DNA of 37,373 nt from a virus (IMGVR_UViG_2565956720_000009), one strand, 5' to 3'; positions 4,730 to 16,360 are shown, numbered from the stretch's first letter. Numbers and translations are program-made. The notes: a model not told the origin generated them from the sequence alone.

Positions 4730-5091
4730 CACTATCAGCTATTGAGTTAATGGATCTCAGCGATAAGTTGGATGCTCTGATGTCCAAAGCGGCTACCGCG
4801 AGTGGCATGGAGTTGCTGGATATCAGCGATGAAATTGACCAGATCATGCAACAGATGGGGTACGGTGTGTCCGGCGGCAGTAGTGGCGAGGAAAAACAAC
4901 CTTCGGTACATGATGGTGTGCCAAAACTGGTTGCTGATTTCCTGGCTGATAAATTCGTCGATCAGAGCACCGATGCATTTATCGGTACGTTGCAGGACTT
5001 GAGTCAATATGTTGGCACATACATCGATCTGGACCAGGTTAAACAGCACACGGCGGCATGGATAGCCGCCAACATTAAAGAGGCAGAGTAA
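4726..5091 (+). CDS. ddrA: DdrA-like protein (dar operon)
   Basis: 121-aa ORF coupled to darA by an ATGA overlap; synteny with the P1 dar operon. Confidence 0.55.
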   Translation: MTLSAIELMDLSDKLDALMSKAATASGMELLDISDEIDQIMQQMGYGVSGGSSGEEKQPSVHDGVPKLVADFLADKFVDQSTDAFIGTLQDLSQYVGTYIDLDQVKQHTAAWIAANIKEAE

Positions 5092-5103: not shown

Positions 5104-8091
5104 ATGAGCTTAAGCGATCAGGTGGTAATGGCCACCAGCATAGAAACGCTGATCGAGCTGCTAAAAAACCTGCCCAATTACGGGCGGGTTTCGTATGTGG
5201 TGACAGCGAAGGGAGACGAGGTAAAAACAGCGTTTGATATCGTCGATGCCTCAGCTCTTTTGGTATCCAATACTCTGGACGGGAAAATTAACCCTGACTA
5301 TCCCCAGGAACTTCAGCCGCGCGACCGGACCCGCGCATCCAGTCTTCTTCAGGTCAACCAGATATCCAAGGATTTGCGTCCTGCCCAGCTTACCGATTCC
5401 GGTTTATCCAGCCATGGCGCGCCGATAATTGGTGAGGACAATGCCGTTGAGTCAGGTAATGGACGGACCATGGGGATCATCAAAGCCTATCAGGACGGCA
5501 ATGCGGATCGGTATCGTGAGTACCTGATTGATCATGCGACCGAATTCGGCATACGACCTGAAAAGGTTGAATCAATGGCGGCTCCGGTACTGGTGCGCCG
5601 CCGGTTAACTAAGGTTGACCGCGTTCAGTTTGCCAAGGACTCAAATATTTCTGATCTTCAGGAAATGGCAGCCAGTGAAAAGGCTTTTGTTGATGCTGAC
5701 AGCATAACTCCGGCGATGATGGCGCTGTTTAACCCATCAGAAAGCGGAGATCTGCTTAGCCGCAGTAATGACGCGTTTATTCGCGGATTCATGACGCAAG
5801 TTGGTGCCACACAGGCTGCTGGCCTTGTAACGGAAGATGGGCGACCAACACGGCAACTTGTAGACCGTATACAAAACGCGATCTTTGCCAAGGCATATAA
5901 GGATGCGCGCCTGGTAAGGATGGTTGCAGAAGAACCTGATCCGGATATGCGTAATGTTCTGACGGCGCTTAATGCGGCAGCCAATGATTTTGTCCAGATG
6001 CAGGCTTTATCAGGAGAAGCGCACAAGCAGGCTGTGACAACTATTGTTGATGGCATTGAGACAGCGGATAGCCTCGATAAAAAGGCGCTGGCGGCATTGA
6101 AAGATGCGGTAGACCTGGTAAGGCAATCGAAGGAGTCAGGCCAGCATATTACCGATGTTATTGCTCAGGGGGATATGTTCAGCGAAACGGCCCCGGAAGT
6201 GAAAGCACTCGCGTTGTTCATCGTCGCGAATAACCGTAGCGCGAAGCGTATGGCCACCGCCTTTAAGTTGATGGCTCAACGTATCAATGATGAGTTACAG
6301 CACCAGGGCCAGGCGCTGGGGGATATGTTTGGCGGCGGCGATGTGTCGTTACAGGATATCCTTCGCCAGGTGTCTCAGGAACTGGAAAACGAAGGCATGC
6401 AAGGGATATCCGGCGGTCTTTTCGAGTCCGTTTCCGGCGGTAGTTACAACGGTGTTGCTCCGTATACCAGTTTGCTATTACATCGGGCATCCGGCATCAA
6501 AGACATTATTCATCTGATCAGGCTGCTTTCCCGCACAGATCCCCAGGATGAACAGCTTGTACAAGTGCTTGCGCATTTTGTTCGAATGCCTGTTGCCGAC
6601 GTGAAAAAATGGTGCCGATTATTCGGTATCAGCAATTCGTTACTTCGCGGCTTGTTAAATCACGCATCCTCCCTTGGGCGCGATGGCTTTGACGAGATAG
6701 CGCAGGCGATAAAAAACGGAGATATGCCACCAGCTATTGACTGGTTTTCCATTCGCCCAACCAGGGTGAAAGCATTCCTTAGCGCGGCGCATTCGGCATC
6801 ACCATTGGCAGAAATGGTTCAGAGGTTGTCGCTCATATTCACAGACCATACCGCGTTGGGTGATCTGACTCTGGACGAGATGAAAGAAGCCTCCATTCAG
6901 TGGGCCGATCAACAAAATGAGGTTAACTCTGACTTCTTGCCAGCATTCAGGAAGGCCGTTAGTAAAGCTGATGATGCCCGTGGAATTCTGAAGGCATTTA
7001 AGGCATTGCAAAGTCAGGTTAATAAACATGTCGGTGATATCGATGGGGTAACGGCGGAAGGCAGGGATATCCTTAAAGAGCACGGCATAACGCCAGAGTT
7101 TATTGATGAGATCAGGACGGATATGCAGCGTGAGGTCGTATCGTCCCTGCAAATCGTAGCCAGAGCGTTGGCGGATGCTAATCCGAAGAGTGCGGCCATT
7201 GTTAACCGTGTTATTGGTGATATTGAAGCATCGGAGGGCATGGGGGCGCTGAAACTCTTCCTTTCGCGAGCGTTTAATCCTAACGGCAATATTCTCCCCG
7301 ACATTATTGGTGAGGCTAAAAAGTATGTCAGCGAAGAAGAACTTGAGCATCTTGACCAACTACTTAAGCGATTCTCATATAACCCGCAGACACGCTGGCA
7401 AATGAATCAGCGAAGTATGGGTTCGGTCCACGAGAAAGTGTTATCTGCCATGAATAGTGCGATAGCCAACTCATCCGTATCTGAAGAAAAAGCTCTTGAG
7501 TGGGCCGACTCTTTTATCACGGAAGAAGTGGAAGAAGCCCGCGCTGGACAGAGTGGTGGGATAGACCTGCGCAAGGAACTTGCTGATATTTATCGCCTGA
7601 CCGGCGGGAAAATATCGACCTTATCAAAGGTGGTTCACCACCAGGGAAGGGCATATGCAAATCTTAATGGTGTTGTTGCTGTCAATTTGAACGATGAAAA
7701 TGCAAGTGCACTGTGGCACGAGCTGGGTCATCATCTTGAGTACAGTAACCCTGGTTTGTTAGAGAAAGCCCGGTCATTCCTGAAGGCCAATGTTGAAGGG
7801 GATAAGCCATCTTTCGTTAATATCGGTGGGCGTGGCAAGCCTGAATGGTGCTTCAGATCTCGATTGAGTAATATTTATATGGCGAAGGTATACCCGCCAG
7901 CCTCAGTAAGTAACACCGGGAAAATTCGGCAGAAATCACCGACTATTTCCAAAACGTCAGCAACGGAAGTATTCTCTATGGCTCTTCAGTTGTATCATGA
8001 CAAAGAGGCCGCTGCCGCATCACTGATGAATGGTGACGGATTGCTGGAACTGTTATTAGGTGTGGCAAAGGAGCTAAATAATGCAGATTAA
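5104..8091 (+). CDS. ddrB: DdrB-like large internal head protein (dar operon)
   Basis: 995-aa ORF following ddrA; size and position match recalled P1 DdrB. Confidence 0.6.
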   Translation: MSLSDQVVMATSIETLIELLKNLPNYGRVSYVVTAKGDEVKTAFDIVDASALLVSNTLDGKINPDYPQELQPRDRTRASSLLQVNQISKDLRPAQLTDSGLSSHGAPIIGEDNAVESGNGRTMGIIKAYQDGNADRYREYLIDHATEFGIRPEKVESMAAPVLVRRRLTKVDRVQFAKDSNISDLQEMAASEKAFVDADSITPAMMALFNPSESGDLLSRSNDAFIRGFMTQVGATQAAGLVTEDGRPTRQLVDRIQNAIFAKAYKDARLVRMVAEEPDPDMRNVLTALNAAANDFVQMQALSGEAHKQAVTTIVDGIETADSLDKKALAALKDAVDLVRQSKESGQHITDVIAQGDMFSETAPEVKALALFIVANNRSAKRMATAFKLMAQRINDELQHQGQALGDMFGGGDVSLQDILRQVSQELENEGMQGISGGLFESVSGGSYNGVAPYTSLLLHRASGIKDIIHLIRLLSRTDPQDEQLVQVLAHFVRMPVADVKKWCRLFGISNSLLRGLLNHASSLGRDGFDEIAQAIKNGDMPPAIDWFSIRPTRVKAFLSAAHSASPLAEMVQRLSLIFTDHTALGDLTLDEMKEASIQWADQQNEVNSDFLPAFRKAVSKADDARGILKAFKALQSQVNKHVGDIDGVTAEGRDILKEHGITPEFIDEIRTDMQREVVSSLQIVARALADANPKSAAIVNRVIGDIEASEGMGALKLFLSRAFNPNGNILPDIIGEAKKYVSEEELEHLDQLLKRFSYNPQTRWQMNQRSMGSVHEKVLSAMNSAIANSSVSEEKALEWADSFITEEVEEARAGQSGGIDLRKELADIYRLTGGKISTLSKVVHHQGRAYANLNGVVAVNLNDENASALWHELGHHLEYSNPGLLEKARSFLKANVEGDKPSFVNIGGRGKPEWCFRSRLSNIYMAKVYPPASVSNTGKIRQKSPTISKTSATEVFSMALQLYHDKEAAAASLMNGDGLLELLLGVAKELNNAD

Positions 8092-8389
8092 AATCGCAGC
8101 GCCATTAGGCGGAGATGCCATTATCGAATTTGATGATAATGAAGAAGTTTCCGGGCGTTTAAGCATTATCTCCGGTGACATTACCGAGGACATGATCGCT
8201 GAAGCCATAGCTGGGGCAAATCCCAATAGCTATATGGGATTCGTTAACACCCTTGATGCTCCCGCAAGTGATGTTCTCCGAACGCTGCATCTTTACGCTG
8301 GCTGGTTTGTTGATTGGCCAGCAGTAGATGGTGGCGATGAGGACGACGACGATGATTTTGGTGATCATGCAGACCAGATCGTATATTGA
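8081..8389 (+). CDS. small acidic protein, last gene of the dar operon
   Basis: 102-aa ORF overlapping the ddrB end by 11 nt; poly-Asp C-terminal tail (DGGDEDDDDDFGD); followed by a strong terminator. Confidence 0.45.
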   Translation: MQIKIAAPLGGDAIIEFDDNEEVSGRLSIISGDITEDMIAEAIAGANPNSYMGFVNTLDAPASDVLRTLHLYAGWFVDWPAVDGGDEDDDDDFGDHADQIVY

Positions 8390-8391
8390 AG

Positions 8392-8424
8392 AAATCCCGC
8401 CAATCGGCGGGATTTGTTGTTTAT
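8392..8424. terminator. bidirectional rho-independent terminator between convergent genes
   Basis: Perfect 10-bp stem AAATCCCGCC/GGCGGGATTT with a 4-nt loop followed by GTTGTTTAT; lies between the stop of the dar operon and the stop of the HipA-like gene. Confidence 0.7.
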
Positions 8425-9725
8425 GCCAGGCGGGCTATGCGTATCTTACAATCATCTAGGTGGATGCGTAGCGCTTCTAAACATGGAGTAAAGTTAGCTG
8501 AGAATTTGTCGGACTCACAGGCCAATGCATAAAATTTTTCAGCCAATTCAAGAGATTCATCCCATATTTTTCGACTTACAAAGTCTGGTAGTGCTGTTTT
8601 TCTAAGCTCATTAGATATTGCTCCCCCAGAGCGTGGAGCAAAACCCATAGGTAACATGTCATAGGCTGGAGCAATATGATATGGGCGTCCGTGGCTACTA
8701 ATAAACGATAGGTTACCATTATGCATATCGGTATTGCCTATTAGCAAACCAAAAGACCATAGCCTTGTTGCTATAATAATCGCATCAGGATGGACGCACT
8801 TATTTTTTACCAACTCTTTAACCAGCAAGGGCCATGTTGCTCTTGCATTCCCAACAAATTCTGCATCAAGTGCACGAAGTGAGAATACACCTACCCGACC
8901 TAGTTGACCAACACGATCAAATCGGGGAATTTCCAAGAATCTCTGACCGTTATAATCAAAAACTTCTGTTTCTACCCCCAGAACTTTTAATGCGAGATGT
9001 TCAGCAAACAAGAGATCTCTCCAACGCTCACTTATAGGGGTGTCGTTAGGCGCAGAGAATTTCACTAATACATGTCCACGCTCTGTGAAAGTACAAAATT
9101 TGGGTTGTTCACCTCCAGCAGATGAACCGGGCACATCACCTTCACCAGCAGCTAAAGCTAATACAGGATATTCACTTTCACGATTAACAGGAACAGGAGG
9201 CTGCATCTCTAAAAAATGCGTGCGTGCTTGCTCTCCAATTAACAAATTACCAACAACATCATGCCCATGCTTAAGTAAGGCTTTGATCACGTCAGTATCT
9301 GACCATTGCTCTGGATTTGAGGGAAGGTTAAGTTCAAGAGCATATGCTGATGCATATGCTCTTCCAAGGAAGCCTTGTGGACGCATATCAAATAACCACC
9401 AAGGTAACCCATCGCTATGCCTGTTATTTTTCCCTTCCTCAACCATAACATAGCCTTCTGGCCTCACCGGAATGAGAGTACCAAGAACGCAAATACACCC
9501 CTCTTCAGTTATACGATAAATGGGGACTGATTCGAATCCTCTAAAAGAGTCTCGTAAAGCATATTGAATAGATCTTCCATTTCCGATCCTAACGATTTCA
9601 TCACCAAGATCTCTTAATGCTCTAGATATCGTTGGTTGGCTAACACTTAGTCTTTCAACCAATTGTCTTGGTGTCATAGGACCTTGATTGAGCAAATTAC
9701 GGATTGTTGTTGCATGTATAGCCAT
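8421..9725 (-). CDS. HipA-family Ser/Thr kinase toxin with N-terminal HTH domain (YjjJ/HipH-like)
   Basis: 435 aa from the ATG at 9725 (MAIHATTIRNLL...). N-terminal HTH (MTPRQLVERLSVSQPTISRALRDL); P-loop-like SAGGEQPKF; catalytic-loop-like LIGNTDMHNGNLSF; APAYDMLP motif. AT-rich relative to flanking phage genes. Confidence 0.85.
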   Translation of the reverse strand: MAIHATTIRNLLNQGPMTPRQLVERLSVSQPTISRALRDLGDEIVRIGNGRSIQYALRDSFRGFESVPIYRITEEGCICVLGTLIPVRPEGYVMVEEGKNNRHSDGLPWWLFDMRPQGFLGRAYASAYALELNLPSNPEQWSDTDVIKALLKHGHDVVGNLLIGEQARTHFLEMQPPVPVNRESEYPVLALAAGEGDVPGSSAGGEQPKFCTFTERGHVLVKFSAPNDTPISERWRDLLFAEHLALKVLGVETEVFDYNGQRFLEIPRFDRVGQLGRVGVFSLRALDAEFVGNARATWPLLVKELVKNKCVHPDAIIIATRLWSFGLLIGNTDMHNGNLSFISSHGRPYHIAPAYDMLPMGFAPRSGGAISNELRKTALPDFVSRKIWDESLELAEKFYALACESDKFSANFTPCLEALRIHLDDCKIRIARLA

Positions 9726-9742
9726 AGTTTTAATTACTATTG

Positions 9743-9771
9743 TGAATAGATTAATGAATAGATTCATGAAT
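9743..9771 (-). promoter_or_regulatory. direct-repeat array (TGAATAGATT x2 plus partial third copy), candidate operator upstream of the HipA-like gene
   Basis: TGAATAGATT at 9743 and 9755 and TGAAT at 9767 (12-bp phasing), 18-46 bp upstream of the kinase start codon. Confidence 0.3.
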
Positions 9772-9829
9772 GCGTACAATAGCAAGCAAAACGGGAGGTG
9801 TCACTAATTTAGGTAAGTTAAAAAGACTT

Positions 9830-9836
9830 CTTTAAA
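9830..9836. repeat. target-site duplication (left copy) CTTTAAA
   Basis: Identical 7-mer CTTTAAA directly abuts both IS termini (9830-9836 and 11038-11044). Confidence 0.7.
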
Positions 9837-11037
9837 TGTATTAGTCGCGACTTGATCTGACACTGAGCCTTGAAAGGTTGAGAGTTACCGGTTTTGATAT
9901 GGGTGTCTAATCCTTATACAAAACACGAGGTAACTCTCATGCTTCATACTAACAATCCCATCATCAAACACAAAGTCGGTCTGCTCAACCTCGCCGAAGA
10001 ACTCGGTAACGTATCAAAAGCCTGTAAAATCATGGGGGTGTCACGCGACACATTTTACCGCTATCAGGAACTGGCTGAGGAAGGCGGTATTGATGCTTTG
10101 GTTAATCAGAACCGCAGAGTCCCGAACATAAAGAACCGTGTCGATGAAGCGACTGAACGTGCAGTTGTTGAGTACGCAATTGAGTTTCCGGCTCATGGGC
10201 AGCACCGGACCAGTAATGAACTGCGTAAGAAAGGCGTATTTATCTCCGGCAGCGGCGTACGCTCCATCTGGCAACGACACGACCTGGAGAACTTCCGTAA
10301 ACGTCTGAAAGCACTTGAAGAAAAAGTCGCCAGAGAAGGGATCGTACTCACTGACGCTCAAATCGCAGCGCTAGAAAAGAAAGCCCAGGATGATGAGGCC
10401 AACGGTGAAATCGAAACGGCACATCCGGGGTATCTGGGGTCACAGGACACCTTCTACGTGGGCAACCTGAAAGGTGTTGGCCGTATCTATCAGCAGACGT
10501 TCGTGGATACGTACTCGAAAGTGGCACACTGCAAACTATATACGAGTAAAACGCCGATCACCGCAGCTGATTTGCTCAATGATCGTGTACTGCCGTTCTA
10601 CGAGTCTCAGGGGCTGCCGATGCTGAGAATCATGACCGATAGGGGAACAGAGTACTGTGGTAAAGTTGAGCAGCATGATTATCAGTTGTATCTGGCTATC
10701 AACGACATTGACCATACGAAAACGAAGGCGATGTCTCCGCAGACGAACGGCATCTGCGAGCGCTTCCATAAGACCATTTTGCAGGAGTTTTATCAGGTTA
10801 CGTTCCGTAAAAAGCTATATACAAACCTGGAAAGCCTGCAAATGGATCTGGACAAGTGGTTGTGGCATTACAATAATGAGCGAACTCATCAGGGAAAAAT
10901 GTGCTGTGGGCGTACGCCAATGGAAACGTTACTTGATGGAAAACGCATCTGGGCCGAGAAAAATTTAAGCCAGATGTAATCTGACAGATACCTGTATAAA
11001 TAACCGGTAACTGTCAGATCAGGTCTGAGCTAATACA
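9837..11037 (+). mobile_element. intact insertion sequence (about 1.2 kb, single DDE transposase; IS481-family-like)
   Basis: Imperfect 27-bp terminal inverted repeats TGTATTAG...TGATCTGACA at 9837-9863 and 11011-11037 (ends TGT...ACA); single transposase ORF; flanked by 7-bp direct repeat CTTTAAA. Confidence 0.85.
9939..10979 (+). CDS. IS transposase (N-terminal HTH plus rve-type DDE integrase core)
   Basis: 346 aa from the ATG at 9939 (GAGG RBS); N-terminal HTH region (VSKACKIMGVSRDTFYRYQ) followed by an integrase-core-like C-terminal region ending ...YNNERTHQG; family assignment by architecture only. Confidence 0.85.
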   Translation: MLHTNNPIIKHKVGLLNLAEELGNVSKACKIMGVSRDTFYRYQELAEEGGIDALVNQNRRVPNIKNRVDEATERAVVEYAIEFPAHGQHRTSNELRKKGVFISGSGVRSIWQRHDLENFRKRLKALEEKVAREGIVLTDAQIAALEKKAQDDEANGEIETAHPGYLGSQDTFYVGNLKGVGRIYQQTFVDTYSKVAHCKLYTSKTPITAADLLNDRVLPFYESQGLPMLRIMTDRGTEYCGKVEQHDYQLYLAINDIDHTKTKAMSPQTNGICERFHKTILQEFYQVTFRKKLYTNLESLQMDLDKWLWHYNNERTHQGKMCCGRTPMETLLDGKRIWAEKNLSQM

Positions 11038-11044
11038 CTTTAAA
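11038..11044. repeat. target-site duplication (right copy) CTTTAAA
   Basis: See left copy. Confidence 0.7.
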
Positions 11045-11106
11045 AGATGATGACTAGGCGCTTTAACTGCTAGCTGACATAACAATTGGCCATTTGACGT
11101 GGAGTT

Positions 11107-11129
11107 CCCCGCCAACTGACGGGGTTTTT
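11107..11129 (+). terminator. rho-independent terminator (plus strand) just outside the IS right end
   Basis: Stem CCCCG/CGGGG with an 8-nt loop followed by TTTTT; would stop plus-strand read-through leaving the IS. Confidence 0.45.
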
Positions 11130-11130
11130 A

Positions 11131-11925
11131 TTAGTCACTTTCTGTTTCTTCTGGAATGTTTTCTTGCGGTTCTGTTAATGCAGCACGACACAGGTTCCGG
11201 GCATTGGCTATAGCCACACTTTTGACTTCATCCGTCATCGTGCAGGTAATGTACTGATCGAGTTCTTCAGCGCGGATGATGCTTTTGCCAATCAGAAACT
11301 GTATTTGCCAGAGCAGATCAGCATCCATAATCAGAATTTCTGCCGGGCCTTCAGGACCAGCCGGGAAGGAAACATAAGACTGTTTGCCCAGGCCGATAAC
11401 TCGACAACTTGCTTCAAGAATTGCGCGATTGAGGTCTGACTTTGTAACTGAAACAGGTTGATTTTCACCTGCGATTACGCCGTTGACATGGATGTGGAAT
11501 GGCATGTAGCTTGAAATTCGCTCTACTTTCCATACGCCAGCAAGCGATCCTTCATGCAGCACAATGGGGGTAACCGCGAGTTTCATCTCACCATATAACT
11601 GCTGGCAGATAGCTGGATTGCTGAATACATCCAAAGGTTCACACTCAAACAGCGGCGCAATCTGTATGAGGTCCATCATGGTCATACCAGGGGTACGAGC
11701 AGTAATGAATCTGCGCATGCCAGTATCCATTGTGCGCCAGATAGCTACACCATGCTTTTTGCTCACTTCTTCAGTAAAGCCAAGGTGGCACATGATGGTT
11801 TTTTCGATAGCCAGATCAGAGATCGAAACCTTTTCGCCAGGTACACCATCATTATTGATGGTCACTTCGACACTCTGGCCATTACGCAGGCGGTATTGAA
11901 TTGTTTTAGTATTTTGTGCTGTCAT
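11131..11925 (-). CDS. hypothetical protein (conserved phage protein of unknown function)
   Basis: 264 aa from the ATG at 11925 with a strong AGAGGAAAG RBS (the track ORF extends to a GTG at 12093 without an RBS); no recognisable motif; lies between ssb and the IS. Confidence 0.6.
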   Translation of the reverse strand: MTAQNTKTIQYRLRNGQSVEVTINNDGVPGEKVSISDLAIEKTIMCHLGFTEEVSKKHGVAIWRTMDTGMRRFITARTPGMTMMDLIQIAPLFECEPLDVFSNPAICQQLYGEMKLAVTPIVLHEGSLAGVWKVERISSYMPFHIHVNGVIAGENQPVSVTKSDLNRAILEASCRVIGLGKQSYVSFPAGPEGPAEILIMDADLLWQIQFLIGKSIIRAEELDQYITCTMTDEVKSVAIANARNLCRAALTEPQENIPEETESD

Positions 11926-12122
11926 AGTCTTTCCTCTGCTTAAAACCTGATGTATTGCGCCTTCAGGTGGGGCAGGAATGTTTTCCCACCAGCGAACGCA
12001 ATATCTCGGGGTGTTCTTTTCGTGAAAAGCGTGTGCCATTGCCAACTTTGGCGTTTGTTTGCGAGTTCGTGCTTTTGTCGGCGTCTGGACCACCGCTTTT
12101 CTTTCAGTCGTTTTTTACACAT

Positions 12123-12611
12123 TCAAAACGGAATATCGTCGTCAAAGTCCATTGGAGGTTCGTTATTGGCGCTGCTCTGAGGTTTGCCGCCACCGCTGTA
12201 TTGCTGGTGGTTTTGAGGTTGGTTTGACTGCCCCCAGCCATTTGAGGACTGTGAATCGTCGCGGCGAGTGCCGATCATTTGCATGGTGCCGCCCTGGCTG
12301 ACGATAATTTCCGTCGTGTAACGTTCTACACCGGCGTCATCAGTCCACTTACGGGTTTTAAGTTTCCCTTCGATGTAGACCTGAGAACCTTTTCGTAAAT
12401 ACTCACTCGCAATTTCAGCAAGTTTTCCGAACAAAACGACTTTATGCCATTCTGTTTGCTCTTTCTGTTGGCCCGTTTGCTTATCGCGCCATGATTCATT
12501 CGTTGCGATGCTGAGTCTTCCGACTGCGCCGCCATTTGGTATATACCTGATCTCCGGGTCTTGCCCCAGGGTACCAATCAGGATGACTTTGTTTACACCG
12601 CGTTGTGCCAC
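12123..12611 (-). CDS. ssb: single-stranded DNA-binding protein
   Basis: [30 protein letters not shown]...[30 protein letters not shown] is the classic SSB OB-fold; Gly/Gln-rich tail ending in the acidic DFDDDIPF; GTG start with AGGT RBS. Confidence 0.95.
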
Positions 12612-12630
12612 TTTTCTTACCTAATAAAAT

Positions 12631-12647
12631 AAATTAATTAGAGCAAT
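12631..12647 (-). promoter_or_regulatory. C1 repressor operator-like 17-mer upstream of ssb
   Basis: Reverse complement ATTGCTCTAATTAATTT matches the recalled P1 C1 operator consensus ATTGCTCTAATAAATTT at 16/17; about 20 bp upstream of the ssb start. Confidence 0.55.
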
Positions 12648-12780
12648 AATGTATATCTTTGAAACGTGGCTAACAAGTGATTTGCATTATCCTGTGCCTT
12701 CTAAAGGGATCGAGTCAGTCGGTATTGGCTGTGAATGAGTGTTTGTCCTGGAGCGTAAAAAATTCGCTTATGAGGTCTTT

Positions 12781-13338
12781 ATGAAGGGAAAAACAGCCGC
12801 AGGAGGCGGTGCAATTTGCGCTATCGCGGTGATGATTACCATCGTGATGGGTAATGGCAATGTGCGAACCAACCAGGCGGGGCTTGAGCTGATTGGTAAC
12901 GCTGAAGGTTGCCGACGTGATCCATACATGTGCCCGGCGGGGGTATGGACTGACGGGATCGGTAATACACACGGGGTAACGCCGGGTGTGCGAAAAACCG
13001 ACCAGCAAATCGCCGCTGATTGGGAAAAGAATATCCTGATCGCTGAACGCTGTATTAATCAGCACTTCCGGGGCAAAGACATGCCCGATAATGCCTTCAG
13101 TGCAATGACAAGCGCGGCATTCAATATGGGATGCAATAGCTTACGGACCTACTACAGCAAAGCGCGAGGCATGCGAGTAGAAACGTCCATCCACAAGTGG
13201 GCGCAGAAAGGGGAATGGGTGAATATGTGTAACCATCTCCCTGATTTCGTGAACAGTAACGGCGTGCCCCTGCGAGGTTTAAAGATTCGCCGTGAAAAAG
13301 AACGCCAGCTTTGCCTGACGGGGCTTGTCAATGAATAA
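12781..13338 (+). CDS. lyz: SAR endolysin (T4-lysozyme fold with N-terminal signal-arrest-release segment)
   Basis: MKGKTAAGGGAICAIAVMITIVMGNGNVRTNQAGLELIGNAEGC... matches recalled P1 Lyz; Gly/Ala-rich SAR helix then lysozyme domain; ATG at 12781 with GAGG RBS. Confidence 0.93.
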   Translation: MKGKTAAGGGAICAIAVMITIVMGNGNVRTNQAGLELIGNAEGCRRDPYMCPAGVWTDGIGNTHGVTPGVRKTDQQIAADWEKNILIAERCINQHFRGKDMPDNAFSAMTSAAFNMGCNSLRTYYSKARGMRVETSIHKWAQKGEWVNMCNHLPDFVNSNGVPLRGLKIRREKERQLCLTGLVNE

Positions 13339-13585
13339 ACTCCGGCAGCTCCGCCGACTTTCGACAATGAAGTTATCGCTGGCGGCGATAGTTTTTGACT
13401 CGATTTTCATGGCGGTATATGTGCTCAATGAGACGTGGCCACTGGAACCGCTATTGTATGCCGGGCTTCGGCTGTGCCTGACATTTTTGAGCATGGCTGC
13501 GAGATTGATGCAGCAGAAAGAAACCGCTTCAGATTGTCCACGCCGCGCGGTGCGCAAATATATGGCACGAAGGCGAAGGCGATAA
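13331..13585 (+). CDS. small membrane protein with highly basic C-terminus (possible lysis accessory protein)
   Basis: 84-aa ORF whose ATG overlaps the lyz stop (ATGAATAA); two hydrophobic segments and C-terminal RKYMARRRRR; followed by a terminator. Confidence 0.35.
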   Translation: MNKLRQLRRLSTMKLSLAAIVFDSIFMAVYVLNETWPLEPLLYAGLRLCLTFLSMAARLMQQKETASDCPRRAVRKYMARRRRR

Positions 13586-13598
13586 TAGTTAACGAGAA

Positions 13599-13626
13599 CC
13601 CCGGCAGCTGCCGGGGTTATTTTTGG
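13599..13626 (+). terminator. rho-independent terminator downstream of the lyz unit
   Basis: Perfect palindrome CCCCGGCAGCTGCCGGGG followed by TTATTTTT; the convergent pro gene stops 4 nt beyond. Confidence 0.65.
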
Positions 13627-13629
13627 TGG

Positions 13630-16360
<2,731 letters not shown>

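Follow-up and report, generated by a model that had tools for sequence, protein, structure and literature searches.

An active IS481-family insertion sequence upstream of a predicted HipH-type kinase gene in a P1-like phage-plasmid

An insertion sequence (IS) that lies between a predicted toxin-kinase gene and its upstream neighbour raises the question of whether it has changed the expression of that kinase or has simply come to rest in a spacer. We consider this question for a copy in the window, the whole stretch of DNA analysed here: 37,373 nt, one strand, of IMGVR_UViG_2565956720_000009, with coordinates counted from its first letter. The window is a P1-like phage-plasmid that carries darA/ddrA/ddrB as well as hxr, isaA, ssb and lyz, and the element stands in it with the kinase gene yjjJ/hipH downstream and isaA upstream on the minus strand. 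Overall, we believe it highly probable that this is an intact, active IS of the IS481 family that entered an AT-rich spacer by one simple transposition and is neutral, or almost so, for the kinase. Public databases already contain the element, its family assignment and an insertion at exactly this place; all of this is ordinary, and no new type of system is involved. The significance is mostly one of bookkeeping, in that a call of IS boundaries, target duplication (TSD) and recency made from the sequence alone proved accurate.

The element and its family

The principal features of the locus are these:

8421-9725, minus strand: yjjJ/hipH, 434 aa, predicted Ser/Thr kinase toxin of the HipA family, HTH at the N-terminus (NCBIfam, Pfam, RefSeq)
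9830-9836, unstranded: left TSD copy, CTTTAAA (read from the sequence; single copy in empty-site plasmids)
9837-11037, plus strand: complete IS481-family IS, 1201 bp (read from the sequence; 100% identical copies elsewhere)
9837-9862, plus strand: left inverted repeat, IRL, TGTATTAGTCGCGACTTGATCTGACA (repeat search; kept in relatives of 83-90% identity)
9874-9944, plus strand: leader hairpin, in which the arm 9874-9889 pairs with 9929-9944 (16 nt, 88% complementary)
9879-9893 and 11002-11016, unstranded: subterminal 15-nt inverted pair TGAGAGTTACCGGTT / AACCGGTAACTGTCA (AACCGGTAAC...), 93% complementary
9939-10979, plus strand: transposase gene, 346 aa, N-terminal HTH and rve (DDE) core (Pfam, NCBIfam, RefSeq)
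11012-11037, minus strand: right inverted repeat, IRR, TGTATTAGCTCAGACCTGATCTGACA in minus-strand reading (repeat search and pattern scan)
11038-11044, unstranded: right TSD copy, CTTTAAA (read from the sequence; single copy in empty-site plasmids)
11131-11925, minus strand: isaA homologue, 264 aa as annotated in relatives (ORF and relatives' annotation)

In direct reading the IS runs from TGTATTAG at its 5' end to CTAATACA at its 3' end. The terminal inverted repeats (IRs) are 26 nt long and imperfect, with 21 of 26 positions matching; both begin TGTATTAG, and position 27 is a mismatch. Together they form the longest inverted repeat of the region in the repeat search, and a degenerate IR pattern allowing up to three mismatches found these two repeats and nothing else across the 37-kb window, the same pattern giving no match in 100 shuffles. 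The chance that a perfect 7-bp repeat would abut both ends is about 4^-7 (6e-5), and the insertion point is a local GC minimum (35%). An earlier note on this DNA had described a 1201-bp element with TGT...ACA ends, '27-bp imperfect' terminal IRs and a perfect 7-bp CTTTAAA duplication abutting both ends. The boundaries (9837-11037) and the duplication (9830-9836 and 11038-11044) are confirmed, and the length given for the IRs was essentially right.

Two further structures lie within these ends. The leader hairpin (MFE -32.9 kcal/mol, z = -2.4) contains the ribosome-binding site and ATG of the transposase gene in its 3' arm, 9929-9944, and, by analogy with other ISs, would be expected to block translation of transcripts that enter the IS from outside. 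This hairpin, and a plus-strand terminator located past the right end, look like standard IS housekeeping. The subterminal inverted pair sits inside both IS ends, distinct from the terminal IRs, and is possibly a second motif for transposase binding.

The transposase is encoded by a single, uninterrupted ORF (ATG at 9939, stop at 10979) that is free of frameshifts and contains both the HTH and the rve regions. Pfam matches to the protein are HTH_29 (2.8e-19), rve_3 (2.2e-11, residues 256-319) and rve (residues 162-267), and inspection of the motifs QDTFYV, TDRGTE and NGICERF points to D170, D234 and E274, respectively, as a putative catalytic triad. Against the NCBIfam model NF033577 (transpos_IS481) the protein scores 289.2 bits, where the cut-off is 224, over profile positions 2-283 of 284, whereas the IS3 profile gives 83.9 bits, under its cut-off of 160. 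The single ORF also sets the element apart from IS3, since members of the IS481 family have one ORF without a programmed frameshift and those of the IS3 family have two, joined by a -1 frameshift. Finally, the protein is identical to RefSeq WP_023352515.1, 'IS481 family transposase'. With the IS481 model above its cut-off, the IS3 model below its own, and Pfam and RefSeq in agreement, we regard the family assignment as decisive. IS481-family elements have TGT termini, a DDE/D transposase and a TSD that, by the ISfinder account, ranges over 2-15 bp and is most often 6 bp (PMC10045372); the element described here combines a profile score above the cut-off, a single ORF, an RNase-H-fold DDE core, TGT...ACA IRs and a short TSD. 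Thus the uninterrupted 346-aa HTH+rve transposase reported in the earlier note is borne out by ORF and Pfam analysis, and the IRs, TSD and transposase, when checked against IS families, all fit IS481. The note's statement that the element is not IS1 was also correct, the IS1 model being absent among the NCBIfam matches of the transposase.

Two points of nomenclature belong here. A mechanical ORF list extends genes to upstream TTG codons and so gives 361 aa for the transposase and 454 aa for the kinase, where the lengths annotated by RefSeq are 346 and 434 aa. The annotators of phage RCS47, which carries an identical IS, labelled its protein 'ISSod13 family transposase' (CDN90769.1); naming the element through the 'ISSod13' literature was tried and set aside, as such papers treat Francisella and other unrelated genomes.

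Arrival at the site and present mobility

How the element came to this position can be read from relatives that lack it. The empty site was reconstructed by joining both flanks with one CTTTAAA, and a search with this sequence returned one uninterrupted match in each of 30 records of P1-like plasmids and in each of 26 complete genomes of E. coli, the matches being 95.6%, 92.3% or 91.6% identical to the window. In an alignment of four empty-site records, exactly one CTTTAAA is present in each. The closest counterpart is plasmid pE2-2 (NZ_CP048917), which is empty and shows zero differences from the window over 7939-9836 and 11045-11932, amounting to 1.9 kb of left flank and 0.9 kb of right flank; in effect it preserves the allele from before the insertion. 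An exact-protein index led to the occupied site in a draft assembly, GCA_009790285.1 (hereafter L009), and in a few similar contigs. L009 is identical to the window over 6939-11932. Among complete records, the phage, plasmid and E. coli collections contain no example of the occupied allele, against about 30 empty sites. Since no complete record is occupied and L009 shares the site, the insertion is recent and confined to a narrow lineage, yet not restricted to this one molecule.

Beyond the right flank, all differences of the window from both pE2-2 and L009 begin abruptly at 11933 and continue through ssb and lyz at about 2-3%. This segment, 11933-13750, looks like a recombination tract with a boundary just upstream of isaA.

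The opposite history, in which the IS is ancestral here and the plasmids with a single CTTTAAA have lost it by precise excision, strikes us as extremely improbable. A perfect TSD does in principle permit precise excision by recombination between the repeats, and nothing else speaks specifically for such a loss. Precise excision across a 7-bp repeat is, however, a rare event, and it would have to account for uninterrupted empty sites in at least three diverged backbone lineages (95.6%, 92.3% and 91.6%). The occupied allele was found in just a narrow lineage, which matches pE2-2 exactly in the vicinity of the insertion, and an old resident would have diverged from copies elsewhere, to which this one is identical. 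We therefore favour a recent gain over an ancient presence, on the grounds of identity with ten other copies, a perfect TSD, flanks that show no divergence from those of pE2-2, and the rarity of the occupied allele. The earlier note had read the locus as a recent single transposition and had proposed a comparison with relatives to recover an empty site with one CTTTAAA copy. Both expectations are upheld, by these same four observations and by relatives with a single CTTTAAA, among them pE2-2 with flanks identical to those of the window.

The other copies of the element tell us that it still moves. Copies at 11 distinct sites have 0 mismatches over 1201 bp; the sites comprise that shared by the window and L009, one in phage RCS47, two in E. 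coli MEW (one chromosomal, one on a plasmid), and those in eight further contigs to which the exact-protein index led. At ten of the 11 sites the copy is flanked by a perfect 7-bp TSD of its own. Because identical copies occupy this many sites, ten of them with separate duplications, we conclude that the element is currently active. The TSDs recorded are CTTTAAA, TTTAATC, GCTTAGT, ATTTATT, CTATATT, TATCAGA, GTTCAGT, GTAAATC, ATTCATT, CATTAAG and TTTTATG. Relatives that are 83-90% identical occur in Serratia, Erwinia, Salmonella, Klebsiella and E. coli and have kept the same IRs, and perfect 7-bp TSDs flank three of the six such relatives examined. Across 14 sites with a perfect TSD, the duplicated bases are 78.6% AT, where the window as a whole has 51.4%; all 14 have A at position 5, and 12 of them have T at position 3, which gives a consensus target of nTTnAnn to which CTTTAAA conforms. 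The element is thus a clean, dated example of an active IS481-family IS, with a 7-bp TSD and an nTTnAnn target, moving among E. coli phages, prophages and plasmids.

Several observations bear on the wider distribution of the element. P1-like phage-plasmids account for five of the 11 independent sites at which the identical IS occurs: the window, RCS47, the MEW plasmid, and two others (L015 and L016, the latter being plasmid CAXJRM010000004.1 of GCA_964044855.1). The other sites are in P22-like or lambda-like prophages, other plasmids or chromosomal islands. P1-like phage-plasmids may be a main vehicle that spreads the IS among E. coli; alternatively, their share may reflect an AT-rich target preference together with sampling. 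The copy in the MEW plasmid (NZ_JCATIJ010000003.1; 4001-5201 of the extracted locus L006) has no TSD and abuts a DNA primase gene without its C-terminus, and an IS1B lies 0.6 kb away. This arrangement suggests an IS-mediated deletion or rearrangement, or recombination between two copies. Partial matches to the IS, mostly of 80-90% identity, are present in 3427 of 5426 complete E. coli genomes, and related IS481-family copies or remnants are therefore widespread; copy number is low, at no more than nine matching places per E. coli genome with partial matches counted. In phage Evi (LR597642.1, 32917-32967) a 51-bp stretch matches the right end of the IS with 98% identity.

Consequences for the kinase gene

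The gene beyond the left end of the IS, which the earlier note had called HipA-like, is predicted to encode a YjjJ/HipH kinase. Its product scores 531.7 bits against NF007297 (YjjJ equivalog; cut-off 401), and Pfam places HipA_C at residues 221-383 and an N-terminal HTH (HTH_5/MarR) at about residues 24-63, both in the numbering of the 454-aa ORF, from which 20 is to be subtracted for the 434-aa protein. The position that the note gave for the element, some 110 bp upstream of the kinase start and between two co-oriented minus-strand genes, is accurate as well, with 111 bp between the left end and ATG 9725 (the start annotated in relatives) and yjjJ/hipH and isaA as the two genes. HipH kinases are described as monocistronic HipA homologues that lack an adjacent antitoxin gene and inhibit growth when over-produced, and their regulation is reported as unknown (PMC8262856). 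When an antitoxin gene was sought, no small ORF was found annotated adjoining yjjJ in relatives, in keeping with a monocistronic arrangement.

With the IS subtracted, the region from about 8416 to 11156, made up of yjjJ/hipH, its upstream region and the plus-strand terminator, amounts to an accessory cassette of about 1.5 kb. On one side it borders the terminator of hxr and on the other the 3' end of isaA; about 30 P1-like plasmids have it, whereas P1 and RCS47 do not. The isaA-IS1-isaB region has been described as a variable, low-GC hot spot of P1-like phage-plasmids (PMC9603915).

What the insertion could have changed depends on the sites to either side of it:

9743-9766, minus strand: tandem 12-bp palindromic repeats TGAATCTATTCA and TTAATCTATTCA (repeat search)
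9776-9804, minus strand: best sigma-70-like candidate for a yjjJ promoter, GTGACA, 17-nt spacer with TG, TATTGT (consensus match only)
11107-11124, plus strand: intrinsic terminator, CCCCGCCAACTGACGGGG and then TTTTT, located 70 bp past the right end of the IS

The candidate promoter is intact, with a -35 hexamer that begins 32 bp from the IS end, and it is retained in four empty-site relatives, two of which have one substitution in the -10. The tandem palindromes (TGAATCTATTCA/TTAATCTATTCA) sit between the predicted -10 and the yjjJ ATG, untouched by the IS, and may serve as an operator for the HTH domain of HipH. The YjjJ protein is identical in the window, pE2-2 and L009, and so at occupied and empty sites alike. 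Because the core promoter candidate and the operator-like palindromes are intact and the kinase protein is unchanged, we infer, from matches to the promoter consensus only, that the insertion would be neutral or nearly so for the kinase. When the entire window was scanned against Rfam there were no matches, so no known RNA family is disrupted by the insertion.

The events at the locus can be summarised as follows. One simple transposition brought an IS481-family element into a P1-like phage-plasmid at CTTTAAA, in the spacer that separates isaA, at its 3' end, from the promoter of yjjJ/hipH, the accessory toxin-kinase gene. The main effect to be expected is that yjjJ would be insulated from any read-through out of isaA. 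On the other side, the terminator at 11107-11124, which is original to the target locus since the empty sites also carry it, would halt transcripts of the transposase gene before they could enter isaA in the antisense direction.

Consider the same locus before the insertion. The hairpin at 11107-11124 is a canonical terminator on the plus strand only; in the minus-strand direction the next bases are AACTCC, with no U-tract. As the hairpin between isaA and yjjJ lacks a minus-strand U-tract, read-through from isaA may have aided yjjJ before the insertion, and an IS located between the two genes must interrupt any such read-through. On this basis the IS might lower the expression of yjjJ/hipH, by severing the gene from isaA transcripts that could have reached it at the empty site, or from an upstream promoter or activator located beyond about -68. 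The element does add 1.2 kb with terminator-like hairpins on the minus strand (10985-10969 and 10740-10722). Nonetheless, a complete promoter-like site with an extended -10 is still attached to yjjJ, as is the AT-rich DNA preceding that site; genes of the YjjJ type have been described as monocistronic (PMC8262856); and the minus strand of the 70 bp that separate the hairpin from the insertion point contains no promoter-like site reaching 9 of 12 consensus matches. Lowered expression is, in our view, unlikely, if not strikingly so.

The converse effect, activation of yjjJ/hipH by an outward or hybrid promoter acting through the left IR, has a precedent in Bordetella pertussis, where the outward promoter Pout of IS481 leaves via the left IR and activates the co-oriented genes katA and bteA (PMC6161684). 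The geometry here is the same, with yjjJ placed past the left IR and pointing the way that a Pout transcript would run. Two weak candidates were found: a hybrid one, GTGTCA-17-TACATT at 9863-9835, which matches at 8 of 12 positions and has a -10 hexamer that spans the junction of IS and target, and an internal one at 9940-9913 with about 8 of 12 matches. A scan for outward promoters on the minus strand of the left end of the IS gave no site reaching 9 of 12, however, and the element is a distant relative of IS481 itself, so that Pout cannot be assumed. Strong activation would moreover be selected against, given that the over-produced kinase inhibits growth (PMC8262856), and the kinase ORF is unchanged. 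We consider activation improbable, more so than a loss of expression.

Much the same low probability attaches to the more general proposal that the IS, about 68 bp upstream of the predicted hipH transcription start, rewires HipH expression, whether by a hybrid or outward promoter or by insulation from phage-driven read-through of isaA. If it were true, lysogen growth arrest, persistence or plasmid maintenance could be altered. We continue to prefer a near-neutral insertion. Its near-neutrality is drawn from the predicted promoter only, and the element's identity and arrival stand uncontradicted. The suggestion in the earlier note, that the IS probably separates the kinase from upstream transcription and may supply or destroy promoter elements, stays a hypothesis in its regulatory part, and any effect on yjjJ expression is probably small. 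The window (or L009) and pE2-2 provide a natural isogenic pair, occupied and empty, for yjjJ expression.

Comparison with known systems

Among named elements of the same family, ISKpn28 of Klebsiella pneumoniae is likewise an IS481-family element of Enterobacterales that inserts in or near genes (PMC6101004, PMC7841143). Its IRs, ATATTGCAATT and AATTGCAATAT, and its length of about 1100 bp do not match the element in the window (PMC6101004); identity with ISKpn28 is ruled out by IR sequence and length, and RefSeq does not give that name to WP_023352515.1.

With IS481 itself, the founder of the family in B. pertussis, the element shares the transposase profile, the single ORF without a frameshift, the TGT...ACA termini and a short TSD, and also the placement of a gene beyond the left IR in the direction of the outward promoter (PMC6161684). 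Nonetheless, it is a distant relative in sequence, has a low copy number, and has no convincing outward promoter detected here. The family mostly makes 6-bp TSDs (PMC10045372), whereas this element makes 7-bp ones at an AT-rich nTTnAnn target.

In phage P1, the IS1 at isaA/isaB is likewise an IS in the variable, low-GC region beside isaA (PMC9603915). It belongs to a different family, with insA/insB and a programmed frameshift, and the IS in the window is on the other side of isaA.

The closest parallel is phage RCS47 (FO818745.1, 26607-27807; 6001-7201 of the extracted locus L001), which carries an identical IS over 1201 bp, oriented as in the window with respect to the P1 backbone and located, as there, in the intergenic hot spot of hxr and isaA. 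Elsewhere in RCS47, an IS605-family insertion (insQ) lies between ddrA and ddrB (L001 1326-2662), where the corresponding junction of the window, 5086-5089, is uninterrupted. The surroundings of the shared element differ: in RCS47 the IS immediately follows the terminator of hxr, it has the TSD TTTAATC, which overlaps the stop codon of isaA, and the yjjJ cassette is missing. Given that position and a TSD of its own, the RCS47 copy represents an independent event, and the same IS has thus entered the same hot spot of P1-like phage-plasmids on separate occasions.
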